A stretch of DNA of 64,000 bases from assembly GCA_963699165.1 (NCBI GenBank), contig OY969413.1:468562-532561 (forward strand), in the 5' to 3' direction. A model generated the notes under the pieces. It was not told the origin of the DNA. It made no database searches and saw only the letters and a list, made by a program, of their open reading frames with translations. The first letter of the stretch is position 1, and the number at the start of each line of letters is the position of its first letter. Positions 17,911 through 63,187 of this stretch are shown in pieces. Both the position numbers and the translations under genes were made by a program. The stretch is from Candidatus Kaiserbacteria bacterium. GTDB lineage: Bacteria; Patescibacteriota; Minisyncoccia; Phycocordibacterales; Phycocordibacteraceae.

Positions 17911-17927
17911 TTTGCCAATACAATTCT

Positions 17928-19583
17928 ATGAATAATCAAACCAAAAAGTTTTTCATATATACTCGCAAGTCTACGGACGACAAAGACAGACAAGTCCGCA
18001 GTATTTCTGACCAACTTTCAGAGTTAAAGGAGTTAGCGTTGAAAGAACAACTGGAAGTGGTAGATGTCTTTGTCGAAAAGCAGACCGCCAAAATACCAGG
18101 TCGCCCTGTGTTTAATGAAATGATAGAGCGTATGGAAAAAGGCGAAGCGTCTGGTATTTTGGCGTGGCATCCCGATAGACTTGCGAGAAACTCGGTAGAT
18201 GGAGGAAAAATCATCTACCTCGTTGATACTGGCGTAATCGTAGAGATGAAATTTCCAACTTTTTGGTTTGATCCGACACCGCAAGGGAAATTCATGCTCT
18301 CAATCGCTTTTTCGCAATCCAAGTATTATGTGGATAATTTAAGCGAGAACATTAAGCGCGGACATAGAAACAAAGTGAAGGAAGGAATATGGCCTCAAAT
18401 GTCTCCGATTGGATATGTGAACGAGAAAGGAAAAGGTATCGTGCCACATCCCGAGCTTGCTCCACTTGTCCGTAAGACATTTGAGGCATATTCAACTGGA
18501 AACTTCACTTTGCGGGAAGTCCGCGACAAATTTAATGGTCTTGGATTGAAGCGAAAAAGCGGTAGAGAGCTTGCGGTGTCGAATTATCAAAAACTTCTCA
18601 AAAATCCTATTTACACTGGTCTAATGAGGTATAACGGAGAGATTTTTGAGGGCAAGCACGAACCGATTATTTCAAAGAAACTTTTTGATACAGTACAAGA
18701 AGTGATGAGCCGAAAATCTAAACCGCATAGCAAAGGCTTGAAGCCATATATCTATCGCGGATTTTTCCGTTGTGGAGAGTGTGGTTGTTTCATTACCACC
18801 GAGCAACAAAAAGGTCATAACTATCTCCGCTGTACCAAACGGAAAAATCCTTGCTCACAGAAATATGTTCGCGAGGAGCTCATCACTTCTCAAATTCAAG
18901 AAGAAATCAAAAAAGTTTCTTTGCCTCTCGATTGGACGGAATGGATGATTGCCGAAAATGCAAAAGATCGGCAATCGGAAGTCCAGTCGAGTGAGATTTT
19001 TTCTCAAAAAATTCAAAATGAAATTTCTCTTTTGGATTCAAAAATAGAGAAGCTGATGAGTGCCTACCTCGAAAGTGCGTTGTCACTTGAAGAATATCGC
19101 GAAGCTAAAAACAAGTTGGTTAACCAAAATCAGCTTCTCAAAGAGAAATTAATAGCTTTTGAGAAAAAATCTCATAATCGGTTCGAACTTACCGAAAAGT
19201 TTTTGAAATACAATATGGAATTGGCAAACGACCGAACAAATGAGGAAAATACTCATTTGTTCAAAAAAGTCGGTTCGAACTTTCAAATTAAGGATCGAAC
19301 CGTACTTTTTGAGCCACGCGGAGCGTGGAAAACCCTTTTGGATTCTGGATTCGGCGGGGGGAATGCATTAGTGTCGCGCCTTCGGCGCGACCCCGCTTTG
19401 TCCGTTTCTTCTGATTCCGAATTTTGGCGGAGGCGAAGAGATACGAACCCGACGGGTCGCACCTTCGCCCTATGGCTTACATCCTCAGTATTTTATTTCT
19501 GCTGCTCGGTTCGAATCTCGGCGGGGGTTCCATGTCATGCCTCATGGTTAGGTGATAAGAGCTACTCGGGACGGTGGACGTAA
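17928..19583 (+). CDS. large serine recombinase (resolvase domain, recombinase domain, zinc ribbon)
   Basis: N-terminus YTRKSTDDKDRQVRSISDQ (catalytic Ser region), CGECGCF zinc ribbon, C-terminal coiled-coil; the frame continues into IR-B', so the true stop may be earlier. Confidence 0.85.
   Translation: MNNQTKKFFIYTRKSTDDKDRQVRSISDQLSELKELALKEQLEVVDVFVEKQTAKIPGRPVFNEMIERMEKGEASGILAWHPDRLARNSVDGGKIIYLVDTGVIVEMKFPTFWFDPTPQGKFMLSIAFSQSKYYVDNLSENIKRGHRNKVKEGIWPQMSPIGYVNEKGKGIVPHPELAPLVRKTFEAYSTGNFTLREVRDKFNGLGLKRKSGRELAVSNYQKLLKNPIYTGLMRYNGEIFEGKHEPIISKKLFDTVQEVMSRKSKPHSKGLKPYIYRGFFRCGECGCFITTEQQKGHNYLRCTKRKNPCSQKYVREELITSQIQEEIKKVSLPLDWTEWMIAENAKDRQSEVQSSEIFSQKIQNEISLLDSKIEKLMSAYLESALSLEEYREAKNKLVNQNQLLKEKLIAFEKKSHNRFELTEKFLKYNMELANDRTNEENTHLFKKVGSNFQIKDRTVLFEPRGAWKTLLDSGFGGGNALVSRLRRDPALSVSSDSEFWRRRRDTNPTGRTFALWLTSSVFYFCCSVRISAGVPCHASWLGDKSYSGRWT
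19341..19458. repeat. IR-B': inverted partner of 17793-17910, overlapping the 3' end of the recombinase ORF
   Basis: Perfect reverse-complement identity. Confidence 0.9.
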
Positions 19584-21914: not shown

Positions 21915-21929
21915 TCTCCCAATTCTAAC

Positions 21930-22346: not shown

Positions 22347-22373
22347 ACCTCTTAAGTATGCCTTGCCCTCCGA

Positions 22374-22804: not shown

Positions 22805-22820
22805 TTGTTATACTAAATAA

Positions 22821-23123: not shown

Positions 23124-23127
23124 ACGA

Positions 23128-23362: not shown

Positions 23363-23449
23363 CGGAGGCGGAGAGATTCGAACTCTCGAGAGCCTTTCGA
23401 CCCTGCCGCCTTTCCAAGGCGGTGCACTAGACCACTATGCGACGCCTCC
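23363..23449 (-). tRNA. tRNA-Ser (anticodon GGA)
   Basis: Manual fold: acceptor GGAGGCG/CGCCTCC, anticodon loop TTGGAAA, long variable arm, T-loop TTCGAAT; CCA not encoded. Confidence 0.85.
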
Positions 23450-32862: not shown

Positions 32863-33267
32863 GGGGGGTGACCGGCTTTGACGGTCTGTACTTTGAAAGA
32901 CGTGCGACGCAGTGCACTCCAATCAACACTAAAAACTGTTGGAAAACAAACTTGCCAAGAACACTCTTGCAAGCGTGAAGTCGCCGTACTTCGGTATGCG
33001 TGATTTCGCGTTCGCGTACGCGGCAGCCTAACGGCTCCTCGCCTGCGCGACGTCTGCCCTCCCGGGTTTCTACAGCCGGAGGAGCGGGCGGAATTATCTG
33101 AAGAATCGATGTCCGGTCTCCCGTCCGGCGCATTTAAATAAGGGATCGGGCAGGAATGGTTTCGTCTGCGTTCCTCGCATCCTGCCTAAGACACTAACGC
33201 TGACTATGCGTCGTAGAAGCGCTTTCATAGCCGGATTCGGACGGGGGTTCGATTCTCCCCACCTCCA
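32863..33267 (+). ncRNA. ssrA: tmRNA (ssrA)
   Basis: 5' GGGGGUGACCGGCUUUGACGG; 3' tRNA-like GGACGGGGGTTCGATTCTCCCCACCTCCA; acceptor pairing GGGGGUG/CACCUCC with a G3:U70 Ala identity pair; internal tag ORF ending FAYAAA*. Confidence 0.8.
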
Positions 33268-33277
33268 CTCGATAAAC

Positions 33278-33319: not shown

Positions 33320-33790
33320 GAGATGGAACGAGACGCCTGCGCGTCTCGTGTGGAGAATCGAAAGGCGCAGCGATGTTTTGTCAGCAGACAAAACCGCGAG
33401 CCGGGGTCGAGCAAATTCGCGAGTGACGACGAGCGAATTATGCGTGACCGACTCTCCCCGCTTAGCGATTCGTGACTTCGACTCCCGTTTTTCATATAAA
33501 CCGCGAGCCGGGGTCGCGAAAATTTCGAGCGGCGGCGAGAAATTATTCGTGACCAATTCTCCCCGCCCCAATTTGTCCGGAGCATTTTACTTAGCGATTC
33601 GTGACTTCGACTCCCTGTCTGCACGCCTCACGTGGAGAATCGAATGGCGGAGCGATGTTTTGTCAGCAGACAAAACCGCGAGCCGGGGTCGAGCAAATTC
33701 GCGAGTGGCGACGAGCGAATTATGCGTGACCTGTTATAAGAAAAGTAGCAGGTTCCAACGAATGTTTAGGCATAAATCCGGCCGCTAACT
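33320..33790. repeat. hairpin-rich repeat family A (two ~105-nt units at 33349-33452 and 33641-33744, plus GTGAC...CTCCCC subrepeats)
   Basis: Units are ~98% identical; internal hairpins GTTTTGTC-AGCA-GACAAAAC and AATTCGC/GCGAATT; begins with the reverse complement of a tmRNA-3'-like TTCGATTCTCCAC. Confidence 0.6.
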
Positions 33791-33897: not shown

Positions 33898-34533
33898 ATG
33901 AAAAAAATCACAACAATTCTTGCCGCTCTATTTTTTGTGGTTCCATCTGTATCATTTGCGGCGGCTCTCACTCCACAGCAATCAAACAGTCTCATCGCGG
34001 TCGTACAAGCATCCCCAGGTACACCTGCAAACGCTTTCGTTTCCCTCATAACCGCTTTCTCAAATATATCAGTCACCCAAGCTACCAGTCTCATCACAGT
34101 TATTCAAGCAGCCCCTGGCGTACCTGCAAGTGCCTTTGTTAGCCTTTTAACTTCTTTTACCGCAGACACGACCGCAACACAAACAGTTACGCCAGTAACA
34201 AACCCCATCTCGACTACTCAACCGGTGACATCAACAGCGACTTGGCATCAGGCCTTCACATTTTCTGGTAGCGGCACATCGCTTACAAATTCTCCCCAAT
34301 TCACGTTGCATGGGAAAGAACAACGTATTGACTGGAGTTGTTCCGTAGTCGATGCATCACTCGACATTAGTAATTTTGGTGCCAATATTCAGGCGACACA
34401 AGATTATTCTGGTGACAGTATCGCGAGTGATGAAACCTGTCCGACCTCTAAAACAACGTACGAGTACGACTTGTCTCCTGGACAGTACTATCTTCAGCTT
34501 GGTCCAACCAATGCTAGTTCTAATAGACATTAA
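33898..34533 (+). CDS. secreted protein with internal tandem repeats
   Basis: Signal peptide MKKITTILAALFFVVPSVSFA; duplicated segment QASPGTPANAFVSLITAFS / QAAPGVPASAFVSLLTSFT. Confidence 0.55.
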   Translation: MKKITTILAALFFVVPSVSFAAALTPQQSNSLIAVVQASPGTPANAFVSLITAFSNISVTQATSLITVIQAAPGVPASAFVSLLTSFTADTTATQTVTPVTNPISTTQPVTSTATWHQAFTFSGSGTSLTNSPQFTLHGKEQRIDWSCSVVDASLDISNFGANIQATQDYSGDSIASDETCPTSKTTYEYDLSPGQYYLQLGPTNASSNRH

Positions 34534-34589: not shown

Positions 34590-34960
34590 GGAGGTGAGCA
34601 AGACACCTGCGTGTCTTGCGTGGGAGAATCGAATGCCGGAGCCATGTGCGAAGCACAGCGAGGCGGGGTCGAGAGCACTTAGCACTTTTGCGAATACTTG
34701 GAGCAAAATGCTTAGTGACTCGTGACCAACTCCCCACCTATATACAAACCGCAGTCCTTTAGGAGTCGCGCAAATTCGCGAGCGAACCCAGTAGGTCATT
34801 CTGCTGAATGAGACGAGCGAATTATGCGTGACCGACTCTCACCGCTTAGCGATTCGTGACTTCGACTCCCCTACTGAAATGTATTGGAGCAAAATGCTTA
34901 GTGACTCGTGACCAATTCTCCCCGCTTCAGCTCTTGGAGCAATCCGATTAGCGATTCTCT
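34590..34960. repeat. hairpin-rich repeat family A, second cluster
   Basis: Shares GAGAATCGAATGCCGGAGC, GACGAGCGAATTATGCGTGACCGACTCTC[A/C]CCGCTTAGCGATTCGTGACTTCGACTCCC and GCTTAGTGACTCGTGACCAA(T/C)TC motifs with 33320-33790. Confidence 0.55.
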
Positions 34961-34962
34961 GC

Positions 34963-35367
34963 TTGGACCCCCATTTCCAACGTCGCATTGCCATCTTCCC
35001 CAAAAAATGGTTCCATTCATTCGGTAGCAACTTTCACAAAGGAGTATCCGTGGCAACCCTGCAATCCGGACCCATTCCATGCACAGAAATCATCGAGCGC
35101 GGCGAAGACGAGATTGTTCTAGAACCGGGTCATATTCGTATCAAAATCCTCAGTTGGACACTGGCGGCCGTTCAGGTCGAAATTCATTGTTCGAGTGGGA
35201 GGATAGGGCGCACAATCCTCGCCGGAAAACGTCTTGTCGTAGCCCCAAACAGGCCGTGCCTCGTGGTAAATTGCCTCGGCACGTTATCCGGACCGCGCCT
35301 TGTGCTGACACCTGAGCGGTCAGAATCTCAAGTGGGTCGATTGGTCGTTGAACGGTATAGCGAATAA
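34963..35367 (+). CDS. hypothetical protein
   Basis: ORF only. Confidence 0.3.
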   Translation: MDPHFQRRIAIFPKKWFHSFGSNFHKGVSVATLQSGPIPCTEIIERGEDEIVLEPGHIRIKILSWTLAAVQVEIHCSSGRIGRTILAGKRLVVAPNRPCLVVNCLGTLSGPRLVLTPERSESQVGRLVVERYSE

Positions 35368-52113: not shown

Positions 52114-52575
52114 TCAATAACCTTCAGGGGGCCGCATCTTCTCGCCCAAAAGGTTAAATGTTTGCGCCCGTATCTGTGCGTCAATCTTTTTGACCTCATC
52201 GTCTATTTTTTCCCGCTCGTGCGGTGATTTGTCGGCCAGTATGTGTTCGAGTGTTTTCTCAAAATCATTTTTAAACTTCTGGTTTATGTCCTTCCAGCGA
52301 ATGCCTTTCATCTCTTCAGCGATTGCGGCTGTGTACGATAGTTTTCCAATCGCCATCAAGAATGCTATCGCAGGATATCCGAGATAGCCCTTATAAAAAG
52401 ACCCGTTATCGTTAGTCATGATGGAGTTTGAAGCGGGGTCGTACATAACGTCATAGAACTTATTGCCACTGGATGAGTAGACCTTGGCAGTATCCTTAGA
52501 AACCATTATGCGTTTGTCGGTTAAAGCCCCCAACGCTTCATAGATTTTGATTATAGGGGGATGTTTCCACTGCAT
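52114..52575 (-). CDS. hypothetical protein (AT-rich)
   Basis: ORF only. Confidence 0.35.
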   Translation of the reverse strand: MQWKHPPIIKIYEALGALTDKRIMVSKDTAKVYSSSGNKFYDVMYDPASNSIMTNDNGSFYKGYLGYPAIAFLMAIGKLSYTAAIAEEMKGIRWKDINQKFKNDFEKTLEHILADKSPHEREKIDDEVKKIDAQIRAQTFNLLGEKMRPPEGY

Positions 52576-52639
52576 GGCTTTATCTTATAGGTTTCGCGCT
52601 CAAATTAAAAACCTCGGTACAACGTACCGAGGTTTTTGG

Positions 52640-53425
52640 CTATTTGTAGTACTTGGACAGAAAATCTGCCAAGTCGGCAGAGAGTTTCTGCCCTTGTTGC
52701 TGTGATTCACGCTTCCGAAATGCCGAGTAAATCTCGATTTGAATAGCGTTGATGCCGTAGTGTTTTGCATACCAGCGCGTGGTATGACCGGCACTAAACG
52801 GATCGCCTTCGGGAACAGCAGGCGTCTCGGCGGGCAGGAAGACTTTGTATCCGCGCGCTTCCAAAAAGCGTGCAAGCAGCCGGTCGACTTCTCCGAAATG
52901 GATAGTCGTCCGATTTCCCGTTCCAAGGATGAGGTCATAACCCTCTGTCGGAGCTATTTTGGGTTGTTTGCCGAACCCGTGCATGTCCAAGAAGATGATG
53001 TTTTCTTTTCCAAACATGCGCATCGACTGCTCTACCAAGCGGCACAACTCCGAGTGGTAGTGCTCATAGACGCCTTTTAATCGGGTATCATCAAGTGCCG
53101 TTTGCCCTTGCGTGTCCGGGTCAAGATTGGCGCCTGATGGCAATTCTCGATTGGCATCGACATACGCCCGCGCCATCAAGAAGCGCACAACATCTATCTT
53201 TGCGCCACGCATCAAAGCGCCGTACACGATGTCGTTTACAATCGGATACACATGGGCATCGCGCCCTTTGACGCCCGATCTTCGCACTTGAAACATTCCC
53301 GCAAAATCGTTTGCTATGAACCCGTCATGCGGTACTGCGAGGATGACTCTTGAAGCGGTTGGATGCGAAAGAACAATCGAGAAGTTGGAGTTAACGAGTG
53401 TTACACCAGGTGCAAGTTGAATCAC
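52640..53425 (-). CDS. N-formylglutamate amidohydrolase family protein
   Basis: AVPHDG, VDANRE, LDMHGFG motifs. Confidence 0.65.
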   Translation of the reverse strand: MIQLAPGVTLVNSNFSIVLSHPTASRVILAVPHDGFIANDFAGMFQVRRSGVKGRDAHVYPIVNDIVYGALMRGAKIDVVRFLMARAYVDANRELPSGANLDPDTQGQTALDDTRLKGVYEHYHSELCRLVEQSMRMFGKENIIFLDMHGFGKQPKIAPTEGYDLILGTGNRTTIHFGEVDRLLARFLEARGYKVFLPAETPAVPEGDPFSAGHTTRWYAKHYGINAIQIEIYSAFRKRESQQQGQKLSADLADFLSKYYK

Positions 53426-53561
53426 GATTTACTCCTTTGATTTCTGAGTTTGCAGTTCTGCCATATCCGGCTCATTTCTGAAAAACAAAAACTGCCCCGA
53501 GAGGGCAGGTTCAGTTGTGAACAGAATTTGGCAGCCGTCTCAGTCAATATGAATAGCCACC

Positions 53562-53696
53562 GTGGGGCGGATAGCTCGACCAAGTAGAGACGTGCTGGTT
53601 GATAAGCATGTGCCCGACTATAACGCTGTAGAAGCCCGTAGTAAAGATTGCCCCCGAATACTGAAAGAGCCGAAATCGAGCTATCCCCAACCTCAT
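53562..53696. other. candidate structured ncRNA or cis-element closed by a 13-15 bp helix
   Basis: GGGGCGGATAGCTCGA ... TCGAGCTATCCCC enclosing ~100 nt; intergenic. Confidence 0.3.
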
Positions 53697-53784
53697 TGAA
53701 ATTAAATCTTGAGGATGTATAATACGCTCAATCACCACGGAAAAGACCCTTGCAGAGTTCGTCTCTGCCGGGGGTTTTTCCTTT

Positions 53785-54303
53785 TTATATTCGCCTTTTT
53801 GTCCGTGCCTCAAGAAGATGCTTTTGGTCGTCAATATACGCAATCGGGGCGTCCGTCCTCTTCAACAAGATTGAGCATTTGCTTGCAGGAGCGGGAGATA
53901 AGATTGTCTCCAGTTTTCCTTTGTCACTCAATATTTTTATCAGCGGAGCATAATCACCATCGCTCGCGACGATTACCGCTTTCTGTAAGTCGCCCTCGTA
54001 CATATCTGTCATGGCTTGCGTCACAAGATCTGTATCGCAATTCCCTTTCACCTTACCCATGTCATAGAGAACATCTTTGAAAACCAGTTCAAAACCGCAA
54101 CCTTGCAGATAATTATAAAGATTCTTGTACCGCGGAATCAGACCGATGAAAATATATGCACGCTCGACTTTGTATTTATCGCTAAGCCATTTGCGGAATC
54201 TTCCGTAATCGAGCTCCCAGAGAAGCGTCAACCGAAGCGCCTTATCGAGATTGGCGGCATCGATATACGCTATGTTGACTAACTTCCGTCCGTCGGCATC
54301 CAT
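53785..54303 (-). CDS. NYN-domain (LabA-like) protein
   Basis: IAYIDAANL and the overall NYN pattern. Confidence 0.65.
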   Translation of the reverse strand: MDADGRKLVNIAYIDAANLDKALRLTLLWELDYGRFRKWLSDKYKVERAYIFIGLIPRYKNLYNYLQGCGFELVFKDVLYDMGKVKGNCDTDLVTQAMTDMYEGDLQKAVIVASDGDYAPLIKILSDKGKLETILSPAPASKCSILLKRTDAPIAYIDDQKHLLEARTKRRI

Positions 54304-54330
54304 TTTCGAATTTTACCACCTCCACTCGCC

Positions 54331-54909
54331 TCAAGAAAAACCCAGGCGGCTTTTCTTGAGTTCTTTTCGCAAAGCACGGTAGTCCGGCACGGTTTTGGCG
54401 ACCAAATCCCAAAATTTCTTCGAATGATTGAATTCGCCTAAGTGGCAGAGCTCATGCACGACGATGTAGTCCGCAAGATGCGGCGGCAAAAGCGCGATTT
54501 TGTAGTTAAAATTCAAATTGCCCTTGCGCGAGCAACTGCCCCACCGCGTCTTTTGATTTCTGATTTGTATCTTGTTCACGCGAAAATGATACGAGGAATT
54601 GAAATGTTCAATGCGTTTTTCAGCAAGCGCTAGCGCGCTTGCTTTGTGCTCGGCAAAATGCTTTTTACTGCTTTTTACAAAAACCTGTCCGGTAAACTTT
54701 TTAAAATAGTCGAGCTTGTCCGAAATCCAAACCGATTTTTTTGCGACAAATTCCTCGGCCAGCCGCTTATTCATTTGCCGCGGCACCGTCACTACGCACG
54801 CGCCGTCACAGCGTACGGTTAGCCGCATCCTCCGCGCGCGCTTACTCACCTTGAGCGTGTATGAGATGTTTCTCTTTGGCAATTGACTTCGCATTTGCAA
54901 TTTTGACAT
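54331..54909 (-). CDS. YgjP-like (DUF45/WLM) metallopeptidase
   Basis: HELCHL HExxH near the C-terminus; basic N-terminal region. Confidence 0.7.
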   Translation of the reverse strand: MSKLQMRSQLPKRNISYTLKVSKRARRMRLTVRCDGACVVTVPRQMNKRLAEEFVAKKSVWISDKLDYFKKFTGQVFVKSSKKHFAEHKASALALAEKRIEHFNSSYHFRVNKIQIRNQKTRWGSCSRKGNLNFNYKIALLPPHLADYIVVHELCHLGEFNHSKKFWDLVAKTVPDYRALRKELKKSRLGFS

Positions 54910-54952
54910 CAGTTTTGATTAAAACTCGGTCATGTCTATCTGCGACTACCAA

Positions 54953-55771
54953 CTAATTTCCAACTAGTGGTGCTGCTTTCTTTTCAACGCCAATTTGATG
55001 CTCGCCGAATTTAACTTTATACGCTGTGAAAAGTTCTTGCGCCAGATCTAAGATGGTTTTTGTATATCCCTCCATAGTGGATTCAGTTCTAGTTTTTCGA
55101 GTACGATATCTAACTGTCCTCGAAGCTGCGCCAAGCAGATTAATATCCATATTATGGCTAATTTCATTTCTCACCGTAAAGGCGTCTCTTAATAAATTAA
55201 GTTTTGCAGTAGTAAAAATCTGCTTGGTATTTAATCCAGATGCGTCGGAAGCTTTGCAAAGTTGGCCTGTCGACTGGAGACTTTCTTTTGTCATGCTTTC
55301 AATATAGTCCCTCAGAAAAACGTCTCGCGGTTGTCTATCAATCAATGCAAGGGCAACTGTATTTAGCGTATCTTTCTCGTTTCGGTTAATTCCACTCCTG
55401 ACGTATTCTTTAAATTTGTTCTGTGCAGTCTCATCGACATCAACCAACATCGAGAGTTTGGAACTCAAAAGTTGTTTGACAAGCATATCCAGTCCGGCAC
55501 ACGCAAAAATTAACATGGCTCGATATAAATCTTGTTGTGCGTGCGTAGACGGTCCACCTCTCGCCCCACTACGCCCCGTTCTGTATAATGTATTGAAATT
55601 ATTGACCGCCTCGACCGTTTTTAAAATGACACTGTGTTCAAATTCGAATAGGCTCCCGGGACTTTCTGCTTCGAGGGTAGTTCTGTAAAAAATGTGAGAT
55701 TGGTTTGGTATTGCTCTTCCAGGGTGCGGTCTCCGAACTGTAATTTTTTTTGATACTTTTTTTGCTGCCAT
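54953..55771 (-). CDS. hypothetical protein (AT-rich accessory)
   Basis: ORF only. Confidence 0.4.
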   Translation of the reverse strand: MAAKKVSKKITVRRPHPGRAIPNQSHIFYRTTLEAESPGSLFEFEHSVILKTVEAVNNFNTLYRTGRSGARGGPSTHAQQDLYRAMLIFACAGLDMLVKQLLSSKLSMLVDVDETAQNKFKEYVRSGINRNEKDTLNTVALALIDRQPRDVFLRDYIESMTKESLQSTGQLCKASDASGLNTKQIFTTAKLNLLRDAFTVRNEISHNMDINLLGAASRTVRYRTRKTRTESTMEGYTKTILDLAQELFTAYKVKFGEHQIGVEKKAAPLVGN

Positions 55772-55777
55772 AAAATT

Positions 55778-56176
55778 TTATGAAATGCGATCTTCTGTTG
55801 TTGGAAGTGCAGTTGCAACACCTTCCGAAAATAAAGTATCACAATGCTGCAACATACTTTCTATAAAACGCCCATGATAAACGGCATATACCAGCGAGCT
55901 GATGTTGACGGGTTCTGGTTTAATAATTGTTAGAACAAGTTCACCAGTCCTGACGTGTGGGCGAAGCCAAGCCTTATTCCTCCACTGATCTGGCGTATGC
56001 GTAAAATCACCATCCGTATCACATGACCAAGTTACAATTAGCTTTTCGTCAATCGCTTTTTTGAAAGCATTTAGTAAAGCCTGTGGGGTGTTTGTTTTGA
56101 AATGTATTGCCATATTTGTACAAGTGTCACGCCTTAAATTATGGCAGTGGCCTTTTCGTATAACATCGGTAGACAA
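55778..56176 (-). CDS. hypothetical protein
   Basis: ORF only; overlaps the REase 3' end by ~40 nt. Confidence 0.35.
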   Translation of the reverse strand: MSTDVIRKGHCHNLRRDTCTNMAIHFKTNTPQALLNAFKKAIDEKLIVTWSCDTDGDFTHTPDQWRNKAWLRPHVRTGELVLTIIKPEPVNISSLVYAVYHGRFIESMLQHCDTLFSEGVATALPTTEDRIS

Positions 56177-56928
56177 TCCTGCCTCATCCTAAATTTCGTA
56201 CCATGATTGTGTCCCGTGCGCGCGTCGAAATCGACAAGAACTTTCCCTTCTTCCAAAGCTTTTAGAAAGCCTTCAAAGCTGAATTTCTGCAACATAGTCA
56301 CTTTCGTATAGTGGTAAAACTCTTTCTTCTTTTCTTTCTTGACTTCGGCCTGTACATAAAACGCATTAAGCAATTTTGTCCCTGCCTTGTGCTCCAAATC
56401 GTCGAATCCCCAATAGGGTTGCGGATTGAGATCCTTAAGGCCCACCTTCTTGCCCACACCAGCGAGCCACTTCTTGTGCCGAACATCAACACTTTGTGCA
56501 TCAAACGAAATCAAGACTTTGCGTTCCTTTCGGTCTATGACAACTTTAAAGCCTCTATCGCTCGGCGACTGTCCATGTATTGTTTGTCGAAAACTCATTT
56601 CGCATTTCGGGTACGTCGTGCCACTTTCCTGGTGAGCCCACCCGTATTTCGGCAGGAGAATTTGCGGAACGAATCGAATGGCTCGCGGCGAAGGCTCAAT
56701 ATGGAAAAGTGTCGTGAGAGAAGTTGTGTCGATTCTTTGCGTCTTCAATTCCCATTCCGCAGCATTTGGTATCGGCAAATTATTTTCTTTTATACCGAGC
56801 AAATCTTCCAGCGTGTTTCCAATTCCACCCGCATTACCGTGTCGAGCATTTGGAATCCATCCAGCAGCTGAAATCTTTTGCAGTTTTGCAATGAGTGCTG
56901 GCTTCGTATAAATGACAGGTTTGGGCAT
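56134..56928 (-). CDS. candidate type II restriction endonuclease
   Basis: Starts 4 nt after the stop of the SPPY methyltransferase; family not recognised (MvaI/BcnI-like is a guess). Confidence 0.45.
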   Translation of the reverse strand: MPKPVIYTKPALIAKLQKISAAGWIPNARHGNAGGIGNTLEDLLGIKENNLPIPNAAEWELKTQRIDTTSLTTLFHIEPSPRAIRFVPQILLPKYGWAHQESGTTYPKCEMSFRQTIHGQSPSDRGFKVVIDRKERKVLISFDAQSVDVRHKKWLAGVGKKVGLKDLNPQPYWGFDDLEHKAGTKLLNAFYVQAEVKKEKKKEFYHYTKVTMLQKFSFEGFLKALEEGKVLVDFDARTGHNHGTKFRMRQDCLPMLYEKATAII

Positions 56929-56932
56929 GGAA

Positions 56933-57814
56933 TTATAAAAGTCTTATTTGTGCTAAATGGTCTTTGATTCTTTTCTCTGCCATTTCGCAGTACTCCGGCG
57001 AAATCTCGATACCGACATATTGTCGCCCATGATTAAGAGCTGAAATAGCAGTAGTACCTGAACCCATGAAAGGATCTAGGATTGTTTTAGCAGTAGTTGA
57101 AGATATGATTCTGTCTATCAAATCTACTGGAAAAGCCGCCGGGTGTTCGTTATTCATTTCTTGCGTAAATTCCCACACGTCTCCATGCCCATTTGCTTTC
57201 GGAGCAAGTCTAAAATCTTTTTTCGCGATGAGATAAATAACTTCGTATGTCGGCACAAAATAACCCGGATTAAAATTGAAACCACCTTTCCGGCGCCAGA
57301 TAATTATTTGGCGAACGGGAAAACTGTTCACAATGTCCTGTCGGTCCTGTAATAGTCCGTTTTGCACGCGCCATTTGTGATTATAAAAAATTGCGCCGTC
57401 GTCAGGGATAATCCGCATCATTTCAATAAGGCATCGTCTCTGCCAGTCCACATACTCCTCATGCGGCATGCAGTCATTGTGATGAGAATATCCTTTTTGG
57501 AGTGCAGCGTTCGCCCATTTGCCTCCACGTCCGTCTTTCATTCCGTTGCCAGTAGAATTCTTCAGATTGTACGGAGGCGAAGTTACGACGATGTCGATTG
57601 AACCGTCAGGAATTCTTTTCATTACGTCAACGACATCTCCGCATATGATTTTATTCAAAAAAGTATCGGCAAAAGATGGCTCCTGCCTTTTTTGTGAGAC
57701 AGCGCGTTTTGGTTCCTTTTTAAGAGTAAGCGTAGGCATATTGCTTTGGAAATAATACGCGAAAATCCTCGCAAATCCTAGTGGTGTTTGAAAAGCAATA
57801 TGCATTTTTTGCAT
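56933..57814 (-). CDS. DNA methyltransferase, beta-class amino-MTase (SPPY motif IV; N4-cytosine or N6-adenine)
   Basis: DIVVTSPPY and FDPFMGSGTT (motif I after motif IV = beta permutation); alternative start MPTLT at 57739; ORF reported from a TTG at 57880. Confidence 0.8.
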   Translation of the reverse strand: MQKMHIAFQTPLGFARIFAYYFQSNMPTLTLKKEPKRAVSQKRQEPSFADTFLNKIICGDVVDVMKRIPDGSIDIVVTSPPYNLKNSTGNGMKDGRGGKWANAALQKGYSHHNDCMPHEEYVDWQRRCLIEMMRIIPDDGAIFYNHKWRVQNGLLQDRQDIVNSFPVRQIIIWRRKGGFNFNPGYFVPTYEVIYLIAKKDFRLAPKANGHGDVWEFTQEMNNEHPAAFPVDLIDRIISSTTAKTILDPFMGSGTTAISALNHGRQYVGIEISPEYCEMAEKRIKDHLAQIRLL

Positions 57815-57823
57815 ATTGCTTTT
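57791..57823. promoter_or_regulatory. 14-bp perfect inverted repeat with 5-T spacer overlapping the methyltransferase start region (candidate operator)
   Basis: AAAAGCAATATGCA-TTTTT-TGCATATTGCTTTT. Confidence 0.5.
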
Positions 57824-57877
57824 CAATAGATGGCTTACTTTATAGATATTCGAACTGTTGCAAGTTTTGCAACAGCT

Positions 57878-57927
57878 CAACTCTCCCGCTTGCCGTGGAG
57901 GAGGAGGTCGAGGGCGTATTGCATCGA
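57878..57927. repeat. ABC-3'-end repeat copy 1 (minus strand encodes FSMQYALDLLLHGKRES*)
   Basis: Alignment with 61433-61496. Confidence 0.85.
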
Positions 57928-57932
57928 AAACA

Positions 57933-58622
57933 TTATTTCTTCTGAAGAACTTCCCATTCCAACTTCAATGCTGACATTCGGTCAAGCAAAATGGGATGAG
58001 AAATATATGGAAGCGCATAAGTATAAAATTCTTCAAACAACGGAATATGTTGTTCCTTTTCATACTCCAATGCCTTTTCAACCGCTTGATATTTATCGAG
58101 CTGTCTTCCGAAAGATGCGGCGGCATCGCCTGAAGATTCAAAGCGAAGCCAAAGTTTCATAATCTCCTCTCCGGCATCCCCCATTCCACTGCAAATTTGC
58201 GTCAATGCTTTCTTTTCATTTTCGAACTTGATTGCTTTCAGCATTTTTCTTTCAGCCTCGTCGATTGTTGTGATGACTTCATCTCCGTGAATTGCCTCCG
58301 GCCAATCGTGCACTTCAAGCATGTCGAACAATCCATCTTTCTCCTCATCGGTGAGATTCCCGAACGAATTCGCCAAAACCCTTAACGCAACTATGTGATC
58401 TTGAACGGTTTCTGGATTTTCAACACCTCTACGTACCCATACGGTCCTAGGCAATTCTCCCAAGGCCTTCCAGACTTCAGGTGCGAGTTGTGCAAATTTA
58501 AGATTAGGCGCTTTCTCACTTTCGCCCGCCGTCTTGGGGTTAGGAAATGATTCATTCATTTTACTATTGTAGCTTAGCGGAGAATGAGATTCGACCGGGT
58601 GCTCAACTCTCCCTCTTGCCAT
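57933..58622 (-). CDS. HD-domain phosphohydrolase (YfbR-like)
   Basis: H...HD pattern: VQDHIVAL ... EVHDWPEAIHGD; alternative start MNESF at 58560. Confidence 0.65.
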   Translation of the reverse strand: MARGRVEHPVESHSPLSYNSKMNESFPNPKTAGESEKAPNLKFAQLAPEVWKALGELPRTVWVRRGVENPETVQDHIVALRVLANSFGNLTDEEKDGLFDMLEVHDWPEAIHGDEVITTIDEAERKMLKAIKFENEKKALTQICSGMGDAGEEIMKLWLRFESSGDAAASFGRQLDKYQAVEKALEYEKEQHIPLFEEFYTYALPYISHPILLDRMSALKLEWEVLQKK

Positions 58623-58660
58623 GAAGGAGGAGGTCGAGGGCGTGCTGCATCGAGCCCGCG
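58605..58660. repeat. ABC-3'-end repeat copy 2 (FAGSMQHALDLLLHGKRES*)
   Basis: Alignment. Confidence 0.85.
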
Positions 58661-58673
58661 AAACACGGCAGAG

Positions 58674-59132
58674 TTATTTCTCTACGATTCCCAATCGTGA
58701 TATGCCATACTCTTCAAATTCGTCCTCCCACTTAATAATGCAATCTTGCAGTTTCATAAACCGCTCTTCCTGCGTCATTTTTTTCCATTCTTCTTCGCTA
58801 TATCTATTGAAGAAATCCCTATCGCCAAGACGATCTTCAAGTTCATCCCAAAAAGCTTCATCGTCATATTCCTTAATAAGCCGGCTGATTTCAGTATCTT
58901 GTCCTGAAGGGTCGTATTCCAATTGGTGTTCAAATTGCTTGGGAAGGCCAAACAGCGGCGCAAGCGAAAAAACGTAATCCGCAATTTCATTGTATTTATC
59001 CAGATGCGGGTCGTCTTCCCTTCCTGTCCTATGACAATTTGCCATCCAATTCCCGAGGTAAACCAGTTGCGCGAGCGCAATATATTGATCTTTCGTAAAT
59101 TCCAGCGGCACTTTGGGCGTATTTGTCTCCAT
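58674..59132 (-). CDS. hypothetical acidic protein immediately downstream of the Doc/RhuM gene
   Basis: 152 aa, D/E-rich; 4-nt gap to the upstream gene. Confidence 0.4.
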   Translation of the reverse strand: METNTPKVPLEFTKDQYIALAQLVYLGNWMANCHRTGREDDPHLDKYNEIADYVFSLAPLFGLPKQFEHQLEYDPSGQDTEISRLIKEYDDEAFWDELEDRLGDRDFFNRYSEEEWKKMTQEERFMKLQDCIIKWEDEFEEYGISRLGIVEK

Positions 59133-59135
59133 AAT

Positions 59136-60083
59136 TTATTTCAGGAGTTGGGTAATGAGCGCGACCATTTGCTCTTTGTTTTTCGGGTCGCTCTCGGCCG
59201 TCAAAAGAGTAAGCGCAGTGAGCGCGCTCGGATTGATATTTCGGGCCGTTTTTACTTTCGCCTTTCGCAAGAACCAGATAAACGCAAAAGCACCCGAGCG
59301 CTTGTTGCCGTCGGTAAACGGATGGTTCTTGACCATGAAATACAGAAGATGTGCGGCCTTTTCTTCGATGCTCGCGTACACCGGCTTCCCGCCAAACGTC
59401 TGCATGACGTTACCGACAATTCCTTCCACATTCCCGGCGGCTCGTTCTTGCGCAAAAATTTCCGTCGCTTCTCCTTTCTTTAAAAGTTCCGAGCGAAGAT
59501 TGGCGATTGCCTCGGTAAGTTCGACGCCGGTGAGCTTAATTGCTTTCTTGGTAATTCCGACCGGCGTGAGCGTACCGCGGTCGTAGGCATCGAGCGAAAT
59601 CCATGTTCCCGAAAACTCTTTTACCAATTCGAGTATCGCTTTCGGATCGAGAACGACGTGTTCGGGCAAAAGCGCCTGAATGTCGCCGACCGACTTCATA
59701 AAGGCATCGTAGTTTTTGCCGATTTGCTTGCGATTGATGGTGTACCCCTTCGTGATGTGCTCGCGAAGCGTCTTGGTCGCCCATTGGCGGAATTCGATGG
59801 CAACTTTCGAATTTGTCCTGTATCCGACGCTTAAAACAACATCCAATGAATACATGGCCGTCGGCTTGAAGGAAGTAATGTGCATTTTTTGCACATTACT
59901 CTTTTCATCAATTTCCTTGTCTGTGAAGATCTTTCTGATGTGTTTTGTGACCACCGAACGTTCAATTCCAAAAACGTCTGCAATCTGGGCTTGTGTCGCC
60001 CAAATGCTCTCGTGTTCGAAATCGCCACGCAGTTCGATTGCGCCATTCTTCGCCTGATATATCACCACCTTATTTTTCGCCAT
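59136..60083 (-). CDS. Fic/Doc-family protein with an RhuM-like N-terminal domain
   Basis: N-terminus AKNKVVIYQAKNGAIELRGDFEHESIWATQAQIADVFGIERSVVTKHI (RhuM-like); Doc motif HPFTDGNKRSGAFA. Confidence 0.75.
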   Translation of the reverse strand: MAKNKVVIYQAKNGAIELRGDFEHESIWATQAQIADVFGIERSVVTKHIRKIFTDKEIDEKSNVQKMHITSFKPTAMYSLDVVLSVGYRTNSKVAIEFRQWATKTLREHITKGYTINRKQIGKNYDAFMKSVGDIQALLPEHVVLDPKAILELVKEFSGTWISLDAYDRGTLTPVGITKKAIKLTGVELTEAIANLRSELLKKGEATEIFAQERAAGNVEGIVGNVMQTFGGKPVYASIEEKAAHLLYFMVKNHPFTDGNKRSGAFAFIWFLRKAKVKTARNINPSALTALTLLTAESDPKNKEQMVALITQLLK

Positions 60084-60109
60084 ATACCGGCTATTGTATC
60101 ACTGCGGTT

Positions 60110-60162
60110 CTAACTCTCCCTTTTGCCGTGGAGGAGGAGGTCGAGGGCGTGCTGCACGAGCA
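60110..60162. repeat. ABC-3'-end repeat copy 3 (...ECSVQHALDLLLHGKRES*)
   Basis: Alignment. Confidence 0.85.
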
Positions 60163-60209
60163 CTCGGATGTGACATTGTCTTTTTTATCGTAATTAGTCC
60201 CACTTAGCT

Positions 60210-60746
60210 CTACTTTAAATTCCAAGCATCTTTTCCCGTTTCTAGAATCTTCCGTTCTTTTTCTAACAGCGGGTCATGAACTCGCTCTCTGTCACTTTTC
60301 TCGATAACAGTCCACATCTTGCCCGGCTTTTTTTCTCCACCATCAAGTTTTGGCTTCCTGTAACCTCTATTTAGGTTAATCTGTGCAGCTTTCTCAGCTG
60401 TTTTAATTGGAAGAATATAGCACTGATATTTTGATGGCGATTGAACTGCGACAAAAGCGACATACTGTGCTGTGTAAAATGAATCCTTTCTGTTGAAAAC
60501 GGGCTCTCGTCCACTGATAGTTTCCGAATCGGAATGCCCATACTGAATCCACCATCTGGCACCTATTTTATTGGTCGCGCCTTTCACTTGTATTTGCCAA
60601 GTTTTTCCATTCTTTGCGGCGAGTATATCTGAATTCGCACTCATACCGTCTTTGTTAAGATCCGTTGTGCGGTACCCGCGCGACTCGAGTTCGTTCATGA
60701 CTATTCTCTCGGCAATCTTCCCTATGCTTATTTTATTGAGAGACAT
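60210..60746 (-). CDS. PD-(D/E)xK nuclease, Hjc/Mrr-cat-like fold (restriction-endonuclease-like)
   Basis: IAERIVMNELESRGYRTTD...DILAAKNGKTWQIQVKG pattern. Confidence 0.5.
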   Translation of the reverse strand: MSLNKISIGKIAERIVMNELESRGYRTTDLNKDGMSANSDILAAKNGKTWQIQVKGATNKIGARWWIQYGHSDSETISGREPVFNRKDSFYTAQYVAFVAVQSPSKYQCYILPIKTAEKAAQINLNRGYRKPKLDGGEKKPGKMWTVIEKSDRERVHDPLLEKERKILETGKDAWNLK

Positions 60747-60802
60747 AGCGACTAGATTAACACTGATTGGAATTTAGGTGGAGAGGGTTTTACCACACTT
60801 TG

Positions 60803-60868
60803 TTAACTCTCCCTCTTGCCGTGGAGGAGGAGGTCGAGGGCGTGCTGCATCGAGCCCGCGGAGGTGAT
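60803..60868. repeat. ABC-3'-end repeat copy 4 (in frame after the kinase stop: ENISRLNHGITSAGSMQHALDLLLHGKRES*)
   Basis: Alignment; frame check. Confidence 0.85.
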
Positions 60869-60895
60869 TCCGTGATTCAAGCGAGAAATGTTCTC

Positions 60896-61405
60896 TTAGG
60901 ACAAACGTTCAAGATAGGCATCAATTTCTTTATGTGAGCGCAAAATGAGTACTTTATTTTTGTGTTCATTAATAAATCGACGGAGTTTCGACGCCTTGGT
61001 AAAGGTTCGCTTAATAATTTCCCCGAAGAATAGTACGTCGTCCCAAAAACTCGTTTCTTTATGGCGTTCTCGCGGATGCAACATTCTTTTCCCGTGGCTT
61101 ACTAGCCGTCTCCAAAGTGGGATATCGAGAAAAATAATCTGATCTGCCTGTGCGGCTATAAGATCTTGTATATGCAGATATGTCCCGTCTGAAACCCAAG
61201 ACTCTGCTTTAAGCGCCTCTGTCGCTTTATCTCTCACTCTCGCCCGCACTTGTTGGATAGTCGGCGCCGAACCACCGCTGATGTGTCCGCCACTCTCAAA
61301 CCAAAAACGGTCGAGATGGATGTGCGGTATAGAAAGTTTTTTTGATATCGCTTCAGCAAGCGTCGACTTCCCCGCCGCCGGTAGTCCGACTATATCTATG
61401 CGCAT
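60896..61405 (-). CDS. P-loop NTPase (adenylate-kinase-like / AAA_18 topology-modulation-like kinase)
   Basis: Walker A GLPAAGKST near the N-terminus; 169 aa. Confidence 0.55.
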   Translation of the reverse strand: MRIDIVGLPAAGKSTLAEAISKKLSIPHIHLDRFWFESGGHISGGSAPTIQQVRARVRDKATEALKAESWVSDGTYLHIQDLIAAQADQIIFLDIPLWRRLVSHGKRMLHPRERHKETSFWDDVLFFGEIIKRTFTKASKLRRFINEHKNKVLILRSHKEIDAYLERLS

Positions 61406-61429
61406 GGAAATAAGTATACCGCTTCTACC

Positions 61430-63187
61430 CTAACTCTCCCGCTTGCCATGAAGGAGGAGGTCGAGGGCGTGTTGCATCGAGCCCGCGGAGGTGATTTCGC
61501 CCGAGTTTACGAAGTAGATTTCGTCCGCGTCGCTGATGGTGTTTAGGCGGTGCGCGATAACTACTTTCGTCGTGGTGGCCGGAAGCTTATTTAAAATGTC
61601 TTCAAGCAATTTCTCCGTGACGGTATCGATGTTGGCGGTGGCTTCGTCCAAAATGAGAAGCTCGGGACTTCGAAGCACGGCGCGGATAAATGCGATGAGC
61701 TGTTTTTGCCCCAAGCTTATGGTCTCGCCACCCGACGTGATTTCGGTGTCGAGCCCGCCTTCAAAGCGCTCCAAAAGATTTGCGAGGCCTTCGTCTTTCA
61801 AAATCGCGGCCAACTCTTCGCTTGTGCGATTGAGGTATGCGGCATTGCCGTACACAATGTTGTCGCGCACGGTTCCGGTAAAGAGGAACGGCTCTTGGAG
61901 GAGATAGCCGATTTTTTGCGCGCGCTCGGCCGACTCGTATGCGCGGATGTCTTTACCTTGAAAGAAGACACTGCCTTTGGTCGGGTCGTAAAGCCGCGCC
62001 ATGAGCGAAGCAGTTGTAGTCTTGCCGCCGCCGGTCGGACCAACAAGCGCATAGGTCTTCCCTTTTTCAAGTTTCAAATTGATGTTTTTCAAGATGTCGG
62101 TGCCGTCCGGATAATGGAAAGAAACATCTTTGAATTCGAGCACGAGCGGTGAGTCGGTTTGCTTTGAAGGCACGATGGGCATGTCGGACTCGAGATTCAG
62201 GATATCGGTGATGCGCTGAAGCCCGGCGAGTGCGAGCTGAACGCTCGACCATACGGAAGCAAATTGGCGGAGCGGGTTGTAGAAATTGCTCGTGTAGATA
62301 AGGAAGCTAATGAGAAGTCCGACCGTAAAAATGCCGCTCGAAATGAGATAGATACCGTAAGCAAGCACGATGAGCTGTCCTAAATCGTAGGAGAGATCAA
62401 ACATCGGGCCGAACAGATTGTTCGCGACGCCCGCGCCGATGGAAGCGCGATAGTTTGCCGTATTGCTCTCGTTGAATTTTTCGCGGAAGTAGTCGAGGCG
62501 ATTGAAAGCAATCATCGCTTTGAAGTTTTTGAGGGATTCTTGGATTTCCGCGCTCATGCCGCCCAAGGACTGGAGGCTTTTGAGGTTGCGCGCCTGCACC
62601 CACGGGGAGATGACGCGCACGATGAGGGTGACCATGAGCGCGGGAAGAAGTGCGGCAATCCCGAGCCGCCAGTTGAGCACGATGAGGAAGATGCCGGTGC
62701 CGGTCAGTGTAAAGAGACCGCCGATAAAGCGCGTGAGGGATTCCGCAAACAGCTGGTTGAGCTTCTGCGTGTCGTTGTTGATGCGCGAAATCAGGTCGCC
62801 CGATTTATTTTGATTGAAGAAAACAATCGGCAGCTCCTGCAGTTTATTGAAAATCGAATTGCGCAGTTTGAAAAGAATGCGGATACCGATGCCGCCCATC
62901 GTAAGCGTCTGCACATAGCTTCCGATTCCGCCCACGATGTACACGGCAAGAAGCACACATGATGCAACAAGCACGCCGTGGAAATCTTTTGTTGCTATGA
63001 AATGGTCGATGGTGTAGCCGATGATGAACGGCGCCGCAAGCGAGCTCGCGGACGAAACCAAAATCGCGGCGAGCGACACGAATAGATTGCGTCCTTCGCC
63101 CGCGGTGAGCGCCCAAAGCTTTCGAAGCCCTTGCCCCAAGGACCCCTTCTCACTCTCCGTTTCGGACATATTAAGCTTGTAGTTCAT
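61430..63187 (-). CDS. ABC exporter, fused permease-ATPase (half-transporter)
   Basis: 6 TM, then NBD with GPTGGGKTT, LSGGQKQ, ILDEATA; the C-terminal ~20 codons form repeat copy 5; ORF reported from an upstream in-frame start. Confidence 0.85.
   Translation of the reverse strand: MNYKLNMSETESEKGSLGQGLRKLWALTAGEGRNLFVSLAAILVSSASSLAAPFIIGYTIDHFIATKDFHGVLVASCVLLAVYIVGGIGSYVQTLTMGGIGIRILFKLRNSIFNKLQELPIVFFNQNKSGDLISRINNDTQKLNQLFAESLTRFIGGLFTLTGTGIFLIVLNWRLGIAALLPALMVTLIVRVISPWVQARNLKSLQSLGGMSAEIQESLKNFKAMIAFNRLDYFREKFNESNTANYRASIGAGVANNLFGPMFDLSYDLGQLIVLAYGIYLISSGIFTVGLLISFLIYTSNFYNPLRQFASVWSSVQLALAGLQRITDILNLESDMPIVPSKQTDSPLVLEFKDVSFHYPDGTDILKNINLKLEKGKTYALVGPTGGGKTTTASLMARLYDPTKGSVFFQGKDIRAYESAERAQKIGYLLQEPFLFTGTVRDNIVYGNAAYLNRTSEELAAILKDEGLANLLERFEGGLDTEITSGGETISLGQKQLIAFIRAVLRSPELLILDEATANIDTVTEKLLEDILNKLPATTTKVVIAHRLNTISDADEIYFVNSGEITSAGSMQHALDLLLHGKRES
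61433..61496. repeat. ABC-3'-end repeat copy 5 (master copy; native 3' end of the ABC gene: ...SGEITSAGSMQHALDLLLHGKRES*)
   Basis: Alignment. Confidence 0.85.

Follow-up and report, generated by a model that had tools for sequence, protein, structure and literature searches.

Composite islands of the staphylococcal cassette chromosome (SCC) lie at the 3' end of the rlmH/orfX gene, where direct repeats of the site bound tandem arrays and where ccr-less elements use CcrAB in trans. The genomes of Patescibacteria, also known as the Candidate Phyla Radiation (CPR), measure approximately 1 Mb, and little is known about how these bacteria acquire accessory and defence genes. In Dehalococcoides, genomic islands at the ssrA gene form tandem units that are delimited by a 20-bp repeat copied from the 3' end of ssrA and are associated with a CcrB-like serine integrase of approximately 540 aa (McMurdie et al. 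2011, PMC3146451). Sixteen of these islands carry a six-gene integration module, and a further 15 have none and were interpreted as cis-mobilizable and as built by accretion (PMC3146451, in which the SCC composite islands are also summarised). In the tycheposons of Prochlorococcus, successive integrations at one site push older elements inward and leave partial copies of the target scattered (Hackl et al., bioRxiv 10.1101/2020.12.28.424599), and the accretion of streptococcal cis-mobilizable elements (CIMEs) and integrative and conjugative elements (ICEs) at the 3' ends of protein genes has been reviewed (PMC5704250). Accretion at a gene end, including that of recombinase-less units, is an established principle.

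Here, an array of small gene cassettes behind the gene of an ATP-binding cassette (ABC) half-transporter is described from a CPR genome. The array lies in a 64,000-nt stretch of the Candidatus Kaiserbacteria assembly GCA_963699165.1 (contig OY969413.1, positions 468,562 to 532,561 of the forward strand), which was analysed at its full length and is referred to below as the window. On its minus strand, the 3' end of the ABC exporter gene is present in five direct copies, namely one live gene end and four remnants. The original prediction, made from the sequence alone, had described successive toxin and defence cassettes, the first four of them each followed by a restored copy of the ABC gene end, and had proposed an accretion hotspot at which elements carrying a replacement 3' end had inserted, with the pattern iterated five times. 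The arrangement very probably arose by serial insertion with replacement of the gene tail, a statement that holds independently of the enzyme that performed the exchange.

Five copies of a transporter gene end

The insertion target (61430..63187, minus strand) is the second gene of a pair and encodes a 585-aa half-transporter with ABC_membrane and ABC_tran Pfam domains. Its last ~70 nt constitute the live copy, R0 (61430-61499), which reads …EITSAGSMQHALDLLLHGKRES and has the stop codon TAG. The four remnants, all likewise on the minus strand, are R1 (60803-60872; 22 codons and TAA), R2 (60110-60174; approximately 21 codons with a 1-nt deletion, stop TAG), R3 (58603-58660; 18 codons and TGA), and R4 (57877-57927; 16 codons and TGA, with one H>Y change). 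When aligned, the five copies, 51-70 nt in length, proved to be in-register copies of the ABC gene end, as had been predicted. The 3' edge is the same in all five, …GGGAGAGTT followed directly by the stop codon, and the 5' edge is ragged and differs from copy to copy, which gives the remnants their unequal codon numbers. Translated in frame, every copy ends in QHALDLLLHGKRES and a stop, except R4, which ends in QYALDLLLHGKRES and a stop.

The repeat array is a real structure and is statistically solid. At up to three mismatches, the 26-nt core GCCCTCGACCTCCTCCTYCAYGGCAA had five matches and occurred nowhere else in the 64 kb, against an expectation of 0.00 from 100 dinucleotide-preserving shuffles. 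The longest uninterrupted identities are approximately 20-36 nt, any pair of copies has at most about 36-40 identical bases in common (some 36 nt for R1 and R3), and no two copies are identical. A sixth tail copy was absent from the 6 kb between R4 and the 6-phosphogluconate dehydrogenase (6PGD) gene of the backbone, as judged by local alignment (best 9-10 versus shuffled maxima of 9-15), by the three-mismatch core search, and by a peptide-pattern search. Only four units are therefore bounded by repeats, and the restriction-modification (R-M) block beyond R4 is not a bounded unit.

The silent nature of the differences between the copies is the strongest single evidence that the inserting elements brought a replacement 3' end. 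In the 45 nt that all five share, 8 columns vary, and 7 of these are silent in the ABC reading frame: CAA/CAG, CTT/CTC, CAT/CAC, AAG/AAA, CGG/AGG, and two columns in which TAG, TAA, and TGA are interconverted. The sole non-silent column is the His-to-Tyr change in the most distal copy, R4. Of the single substitutions that are possible in the block, 79% would alter the peptide or abolish the stop, and the probability of at most one such change among 8 random substitutions is 6.5e-5 for uniform substitution and 3.8e-4 under a strong transition bias. The ABC open reading frame (ORF) is intact at its full 585 aa, and frame and stop codon are kept in all copies. This silent-site pattern implies that each copy diverged while it served as the end of an ABC gene or was under selection to remain usable as one.

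The same data bear on an origin in place, in which the gene end would have been duplicated by replication slippage, or by very long target-site duplications of a transposase, and the duplicates would then have decayed. Such an origin agrees with the fact that the copies are direct repeats of one local sequence, but decay predicts mostly protein-changing differences, whereas here nearly all are silent and every stop is kept; furthermore, the 5' edges differ between copies and the GC content of the cargo is foreign, at 0.44-0.48 in the bounded units versus 0.53 in the ABC gene and 0.55 in the backbone. We know of no transposase that makes duplications of 50-70 nt, and duplication in place is exceedingly unlikely. 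The near-silent divergence, the retained stops, and the low GC content instead bear out the iterated insertion with a replacement 3' end that had been predicted.

The tail …ALDLLLHGKRES is conserved in orthologous Acidobacteriota ABC genes that have only 65-68% DNA identity. Orthologs from Acidobacteriota and CPR have near-identical tails, and the wider ABC family shows close variants at this end. Conservation across such distant orthologs shows that the target is under strong constraint, which is usual for good integration targets. An orphan array of polymorphic toxins (of the Rhs or contact-dependent inhibition type), in which the repeat is an in-frame pre-toxin segment through which orphan toxin tips lying downstream can take the place of the main gene's C terminus, was also considered as a source of repeated gene ends and was rejected, since every copy encodes the same peptide followed by a stop and the cargo has its own start codons 24-56 nt downstream.

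The array was recovered in more than one assembly. The window matched a 54.5-kb contig of the NCBI metagenome-assembled genome GCA_049279115.1 (Minisyncoccia, i.e., CPR/Patescibacteria) at 100% over 13.8 kb, array included; because the window reaches beyond that contig, it represents another assembly, and the protein collection records a 993-kb contig with the same proteins. In addition, a third and independent assembly (Logan SRR27973122) has the identical sequence over the ABC gene and the first, kinase-bearing cassette and breaks inside R1, as a k=31 graph would be expected to do at a repeat with ~36 nt in common with R3. An assembly artefact, in which strains with a single cassette each would have been threaded in series through the shared repeat, would draw on this break, which indicates that the repeat branches the k=31 graph, and on the metagenomic origin of all the assemblies. 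Against it, a normal read is longer than the whole repeat and so covers it from end to end; the copies differ from one another both in their combination of variants and in their 5' edge; and the 54.5-kb contig and the separately assembled window agree at 100% over the 13.8 kb. Moreover, one-cassette strains predict the same distal flank on each remnant, whereas a different cassette is joined to each one here. Taken together, these points make an artefact very unlikely.

Cassettes, cargo and the distal block

The four repeat-bounded cassettes contain one or two genes each, and all cargo genes run in the direction of the ABC gene, on the minus strand. Cassette 1 (60803..61429, 627 nt) ends in R1 and carries a P-loop kinase-like gene (60896-61405; 169 aa, pI 9.9), whose product showed weak matches to Pfam AAA_18/AAA_33 and a full-length but sub-threshold match to the NCBIfam "DNA topology modulation protein" (E 5e-18). 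Cassette 2 (60110..60802, 693 nt) ends in R2 and carries a PD-(D/E)xK-like gene (60210-60746; 178 aa); this protein is itself without a Pfam match, and some of its homologs carry PF11645, with one bearing the UniRef name PD(D/E)XK endonuclease. Cassette 3 (58603..60109, 1507 nt), which ends in R3, is the largest and contains a RhuM+Fic/Doc gene (59136-60083; 315 aa) and the gene of an acidic partner (58674-59132; 152 aa, pI 4.4); the RhuM+Fic/Doc protein has Pfam matches and matched the PADLOC candidate system PDC-S23 over its full length (E 9e-103). Cassette 4 (57877..58602, 726 nt) ends in R4 and carries the gene of an HD_3 hydrolase (57933-58559; 208 aa), assigned by Pfam.

The Pfam, NCBIfam, and PADLOC assignments reproduce the gene order of the original prediction and sustain its label of defence cargo in part. 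The label stands for RhuM/Fic, through PDC-S23; the kinase-like, PD-(D/E)xK-like, and HD proteins had no PADLOC defence match. Direct support for a defence role thus covers one of the four bounded cassettes and the unbounded R-M pair, and such a role is plausible for the other three cassettes. At 90% identity, the proteins of all four cassettes are singletons that occur in this genome only.

The units are closely packed, with 24-56 nt between a tail copy and the next start codon and 3-40 nt between a cargo stop and the next tail copy. The start codon of the kinase-like gene lies 24 nt past the ABC stop, with TATACT ending 7 nt ahead of it. A hexamer of the form TAnnnT (TATACT, TAATCT, TACAAT, and TACAAT) ends 6-9 nt ahead of the start codon in each unit, a regularity that was spotted post hoc. 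Scans of the array for sigma-70 promoters and intrinsic terminators remained at chance level, and no terminator-like site was found between the units on the cargo strand.

Distal to R4 lies a low-GC block (52114..57876, minus strand; GC 0.449) with genes for an N6_N4 methyltransferase (MTase), an MvaI/BcnI restriction endonuclease, two hypothetical proteins (one with a weak HEPN match), and YgjP-like, NYN, FGase, and UCP014422 proteins. No tail copy bounds this block, and it is therefore not assignable to the cassette system; it may represent the DNA that first lay behind the ABC gene or else an island with a different history. The predicted fivefold iteration accordingly reduces to four bounded units, the R-M block having no distal repeat here and no flanking repeats where its MTase and restriction endonuclease pair is found elsewhere. 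The MTase is a member of a 21-member cluster at 90% identity, and the same MTase and MvaI/BcnI pair was found behind tyrS (tyrosyl-tRNA synthetase) in at least two other CPR lineages (L021-L024), where the MTase is at least 90% identical at the protein level and 76-78% identical in DNA and where similarity stops at the boundaries of the coding region. This R-M pair moves between loci.

Several smaller features were seen in and around this block. A 31-nt palindromic sequence, AAGCAATATGCATTTTTTGCATATTGCTTTT, is located at 57793-57823, within the 254-nt leader that precedes the MTase gene, and recurs as an 84% copy at 59873-59903 within the RhuM/Fic coding region, and a perfect 9-bp hairpin, CTGTTGCAA-AAC-TTGCAACAG, directly follows R4. 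The palindrome and the hairpin after R4 may be operator or terminator elements of the R-M unit. Furthermore, a 359-nt gap between the NYN and FGase genes (53426-53784) has no called gene and gave no match to Rfam; its GC content is mixed, and a number of short stretches in it resemble hairpins.

Proposed insertion mechanism and candidate recombinases

The array is best explained as the product of at least four successive insertions, in which small circular cassettes would have entered the last ~50 nt of the ABC gene. Each cassette would have consisted of one or two genes preceded by a short spacer, together with an attachment sequence mimicking the ABC tail through its stop, arranged around the circle as the right part of the tail with the stop, the spacer, the cargo, and the left part of the tail. 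Recombination in the shared 48-nt block would join the incoming tail to the gene and leave the transporter intact, and the old tail would be displaced downstream as a remnant; repetition of this event at the live end would stack the cassettes. The part of R0 that lies 3' of the crossover would then have been supplied by the kinase cassette, and each internal repeat would be a hybrid, with its left part from the cassette on the ABC side and its right part from the older cassette beyond. Insertion at the live end would also make the kinase-like unit probably the newest. The sharp 3' edge at the stop and the cassette-specific 5' edges constitute the geometry that would result if a circle brought along a tail copy.

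The exchange would be catalysed by a site-specific recombinase that is encoded elsewhere and acts in trans on simple, near-identical sites. Only 3-56 nt of non-coding DNA lie beside the site, which leaves no room for arm sites of the lambda type; this lack of room and the near identity of the partner sites point to a trans-acting enzyme of a simple and reversible kind, either a Cre/Xer-like or a serine recombinase, for which we judge the case to be evenly balanced or a shade better. The reaction would then be reversible, and the cassettes would probably be excisable and could be reshuffled in the manner of an integron array, on double-stranded gene-tail sites. When the DNA of the five copies was folded, no copy outperformed its shuffles, whichever strand was used (z 0.0 to +2.0), so that the sites are of a double-stranded type. 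In the GC-rich repeat, inspection by eye found no AT-rich palindromic arms like those of dif (a 28-bp site with two 11-bp arms and a 6-bp spacer, as in IMEX and pdif modules).

The folding results also bear on a degenerate integron, or a cluster of attC sites lacking an integron integrase (CALIN), in which the repeats would be attC sites and an IntI-type integrase would handle the cassettes. The size of the cassettes (0.6-1.5 kb), their single promoter-proximal ORFs in uniform orientation, and a conserved GTT at the 3' edge all recall such arrays. However, attC sites recombine as folded single strands, and with all copies folded on both strands the attC identity was rejected: none of the five exceeded its shuffles, and no R''-L''/L'-R' hairpin was found. 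In addition, the repeat is an in-frame coding gene tail, no tyrosine recombinase lies near the array, and no IntI, which complete integrons (though not CALINs) have beside the array together with attI and Pc, was found within ~10 kb upstream of the ABC pair or on to the 6PGD gene. An integron origin is consequently extremely unlikely.

The main rival to a dedicated enzyme is RecA-driven insertion of the Campbell type. Circles with 48-70 nt of tail homology would enter by a single crossover anywhere in that homology, and the circles themselves would arise by loop-out between neighbouring copies, without any dedicated recombinase. This predicts an identical geometry, with a hybrid tail on each side, cassette-specific 5' edges, and an intact gene; it also accounts for the recombinase that is missing in and near the array and for the different length of homology in each cassette, and it is consistent with the repeat having no significant dyad or fold. 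On the other hand, the homology is very short and interrupted, its ~20-36 nt of identity being near or below the usual minimum for efficient RecA exchange; the origin of a precise tail copy ending at the stop codon on the cargo is left unexplained; and for this route it would be an unusually high frequency if a single short target had been hit four times independently. RecA-driven insertion is thus possible and rather unlikely, and, taken as a whole, serial insertion of circular, recombinase-less cassettes by a trans-acting site-specific recombinase is the account that we favour by a modest degree.

A source for such an enzyme was sought in the precomputed Pfam context, which was surveyed in the window from about 10 kb to its end and for 7 kb beyond. 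The array contains no recombinase gene, and neither do the ~10 kb upstream of the ABC pair and the stretch that extends to the 6PGD gene, so that the integrase absence noted earlier for the array holds for some 10 kb in both directions. A single site-specific recombinase was found in the window, a complete large serine recombinase (17928..19583, plus strand; Resolvase, Recombinase, and Zn_ribbon_recom), whose best NCBIfam matches, XisF (98 bits; cut-off 375) and NF047343 CcrB (95 bits, E 4e-27; cut-off 900), are far below threshold. It is located 42 kb from the array in a separate low-GC island beside tRNA-Ser, within a segment bounded by perfect 120-nt inverted repeats (17787-17906 and 19311-19430). 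The orientation of this segment in the window is opposite to that in an NCBI contig (L020), and the simplest reading is that the recombinase inverts its own segment. It adjoins a Fic-domain gene (16172-17275, minus strand) that lies between perfect 203-nt inverted repeats (15713-15915 and 17589-17791), which suggests either that 15713-19430 comprises a pair of adjacent segments, each able to invert, or that the assembly is ambiguous at these repeats. A contig of a related strain (L019) is 99.8% identical over 19427-23257 and diverges exactly at the outer repeat, indicating that the recombinase module varies between strains. This recombinase is a weak candidate for the trans-acting enzyme. The alternative of a novel mechanism, also raised in the original prediction, is not needed, since recombinase-less accretion at gene 3' ends is documented (PMC3146451) and the window does encode a serine recombinase, though nothing ties it to the site.

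A number of results weigh against serial insertion by such an enzyme. With the recombinase 42 kb off, in its own invertible segment and with no tail-like DNA around it, no enzyme is tied to the site; compared with all DNA outside the array, including the surroundings of the recombinase, the tail repeat had best matches of 11-12 nt, which is chance level. No significant dyad symmetry or fold marks a core site in the repeat; an imperfect purine/pyrimidine-rich dyad, CTCCTCCTC-8 nt-GAGGGAGAG, is visible without statistical support. The exact crossover point, which was to be found by alignment of the repeats, could not be located from the silent-site haplotypes, which are mosaic, with all four combinations of outer and inner sites occurring and no position favoured. 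Comparison with other genomes likewise failed to confirm the proposed accretion hotspot: none of 13 orthologous ABC loci (ten from Acidobacteriota and three from CPR, L014, L015/L016, and L028) has an extra tail copy, and the nearest CPR orthologs, 76%, 66%, and 64% identical, have single tails. A codon-degenerate tail pattern matched 3 times in genome contigs and 7 times in metagenome contigs, all of them single, real Acidobacteriota ABC ends, and neither the narrow nor the family-level tail pattern had any match in contigs of viruses and mobile genetic elements. Among phages and plasmids, no second array was found, and only a conserved rhuM patch of 62-80 nt matched.

The homologs of the cargo point in the same direction. 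Homologs of the PD-(D/E)xK-like protein (66-79% amino acid and 70-76% nucleotide identity) occur in unrelated contexts (L025-L027), where neither a sequence like the ABC tail nor a duplicated end of the gene upstream was found close by. In one of these (L026, 3550-9228; Logan SRR22387951), a 75%-identical homolog is part of a mobile element that also encodes an HTH/ImmA (Peptidase_M78) pair, a primase-helicase (Prim-Pol/PriCT_1/AAA_25), and a large serine recombinase with no more than 24-34% identity to that of the window, which indicates that the cargo gene of cassette 2 travels elsewhere on a recombinase-bearing element. No flanking repeats or gene-tail copies were found at the tyrS-linked MTase and MvaI/BcnI pairs either. 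Because the PD-(D/E)xK and R-M homologs are without gene-tail flanks, cassette mobility via this site is not demonstrated, and the array is so far unique, being known from one genome and from metagenome assemblies only.

Other parts of the window contain repeats of their own. The low-GC island that holds the recombinase measures ~10.4 kb (12768-23449) and lies beside tRNA-Ser (23362-23449, minus strand); it is flanked by a 139-nt direct repeat (12768-12906 and 23133-23271, 85% identical), a 44-nt repeat family with three copies (12885, 15674, and 23322) begins at the tRNA-Ser 3' end, and the cargo includes an ECF sigma factor, the Fic gene, the serine recombinase, and a P-type ATPase. This island may be a second accretion site of the same genome. 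The transfer-messenger RNA (tmRNA) gene (32864-33270), beside smpB, is followed by nested direct-repeat blocks (33337-33731 and 34600-34970) that bracket one gene of 211 aa (33898-34533) with a signal-peptide-like N terminus and no Pfam match. Some of these repeat units resemble the tmRNA 3' end (ATTCTCCCCACCTCCA versus ATTCTCCCCGCCCCAA); Rfam found no partial tmRNA or tRNA in them, and the terminal 16-mer of the tmRNA has one look-alike with 3 mismatches, a marginal result, as 4 of 100 shuffles reach 2 matches. A further accretion site at the tmRNA gene was considered and not adopted. In a low-GC region (9890-11993), moreover, a perfect 175-nt tandem duplication (9890-10064 and 10065-10239) directly precedes the gene of an rve-family transposase (10385-11167), and the gene of a TdeIII-type restriction endonuclease (11226-11993) comes next. 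The array pattern is not expected from this transposase.

Comparison with described accretion systems

With the class of accretion arrays that comprises the ssrA islands, SCC, and CIMEs, the locus shares units bounded by repeats of a gene 3' end and restoration of the target gene; a cognate recombinase, in the array or linked to the site, is the feature of that class that it lacks. Similarity to the ssrA islands extends to tandem units behind a single-copy conserved gene, direct repeats of its 3' end, an intact gene, and units without an integration module. Unlike the ssrA islands, which have a tmRNA target, a 20-bp repeat, and sizes of many kb, the present units have an in-frame protein tail of 51-70 nt as their repeat, measure 0.6-1.5 kb, and include no recombinase in any unit.

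Like SCC, the array occupies the 3' end of a conserved protein-coding gene and consists of direct repeats in tandem. SCC elements, in contrast, are 3-60 kb in size, have repeats of ~15-27 bp, and normally hold CcrAB in the array, whereas the recombinase of the window lies far from the array and reaches 95 bits where 900 are required for CcrB. Membership in SCC was rejected on that shortfall and on the target, which is an ABC_membrane and ABC_tran gene and not rlmH. CIMEs are likewise flanked by attachment sites, devoid of integration and transfer genes of their own, and accumulated in tandem at a conserved gene 3' end; they are, however, decayed ICEs or integrative and mobilizable elements of several kb that lie beside an integrase-bearing element, whereas here the units are minimal and have no integrase-bearing partner.

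Tycheposons resemble the locus in their stacked integrations, their remnants of target copies, their defence or niche cargo, and their streamlined host with few classical routes of transfer. They differ from it in that they use tRNA targets and that their active elements carry a tyrosine (rarely a large serine) recombinase together with replication genes and typically measure several kb and up to 10-20 kb. Membership was rejected because the flanks here are copies of a protein-coding tail and no tRNA is present between 52 and 64 kb of the window. Integron arrays and CALINs, finally, also consist of promoter-less or short-leader single-gene cassettes of 0.5-1.5 kb in uniform orientation, with a recombination site between them and no recombinase of their own, and are expected to hold the newest cassette at the anchor; in contrast to them, the locus has no attC hairpins and no adjacent IntI, and its anchor is the coding tail of a housekeeping-type gene, not attI.

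What distinguishes the locus is the single-gene scale of 0.6-1.5 kb, the in-frame protein-coding target, the lack of any recombinase-bearing member, and the CPR host. The locus shows a compact form of gene gain, in which small units come to lie behind a conserved gene, each with a spare end, and the target is left undamaged. Remnants that differ only synonymously and keep their stop codon provide a simple and general test for such sites in other genomes. It is a tentative and, in our estimate, doubtful proposal that the locus represents a new type of gene-cassette platform, an integron equivalent with double-stranded coding-tail sites and a non-IntI recombinase from elsewhere, by which the ultra-small genomes of CPR bacteria might take up defence or toxin modules of one gene each, stack and express them, and change their order, without damage to the target. 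If the units are mobile, their capture would be integron-like without attC hairpins or an adjacent integrase, and the gene-end accretion known from SCC, the ssrA islands, and tycheposons would be extended to the scale of single genes and to a protein-coding target.

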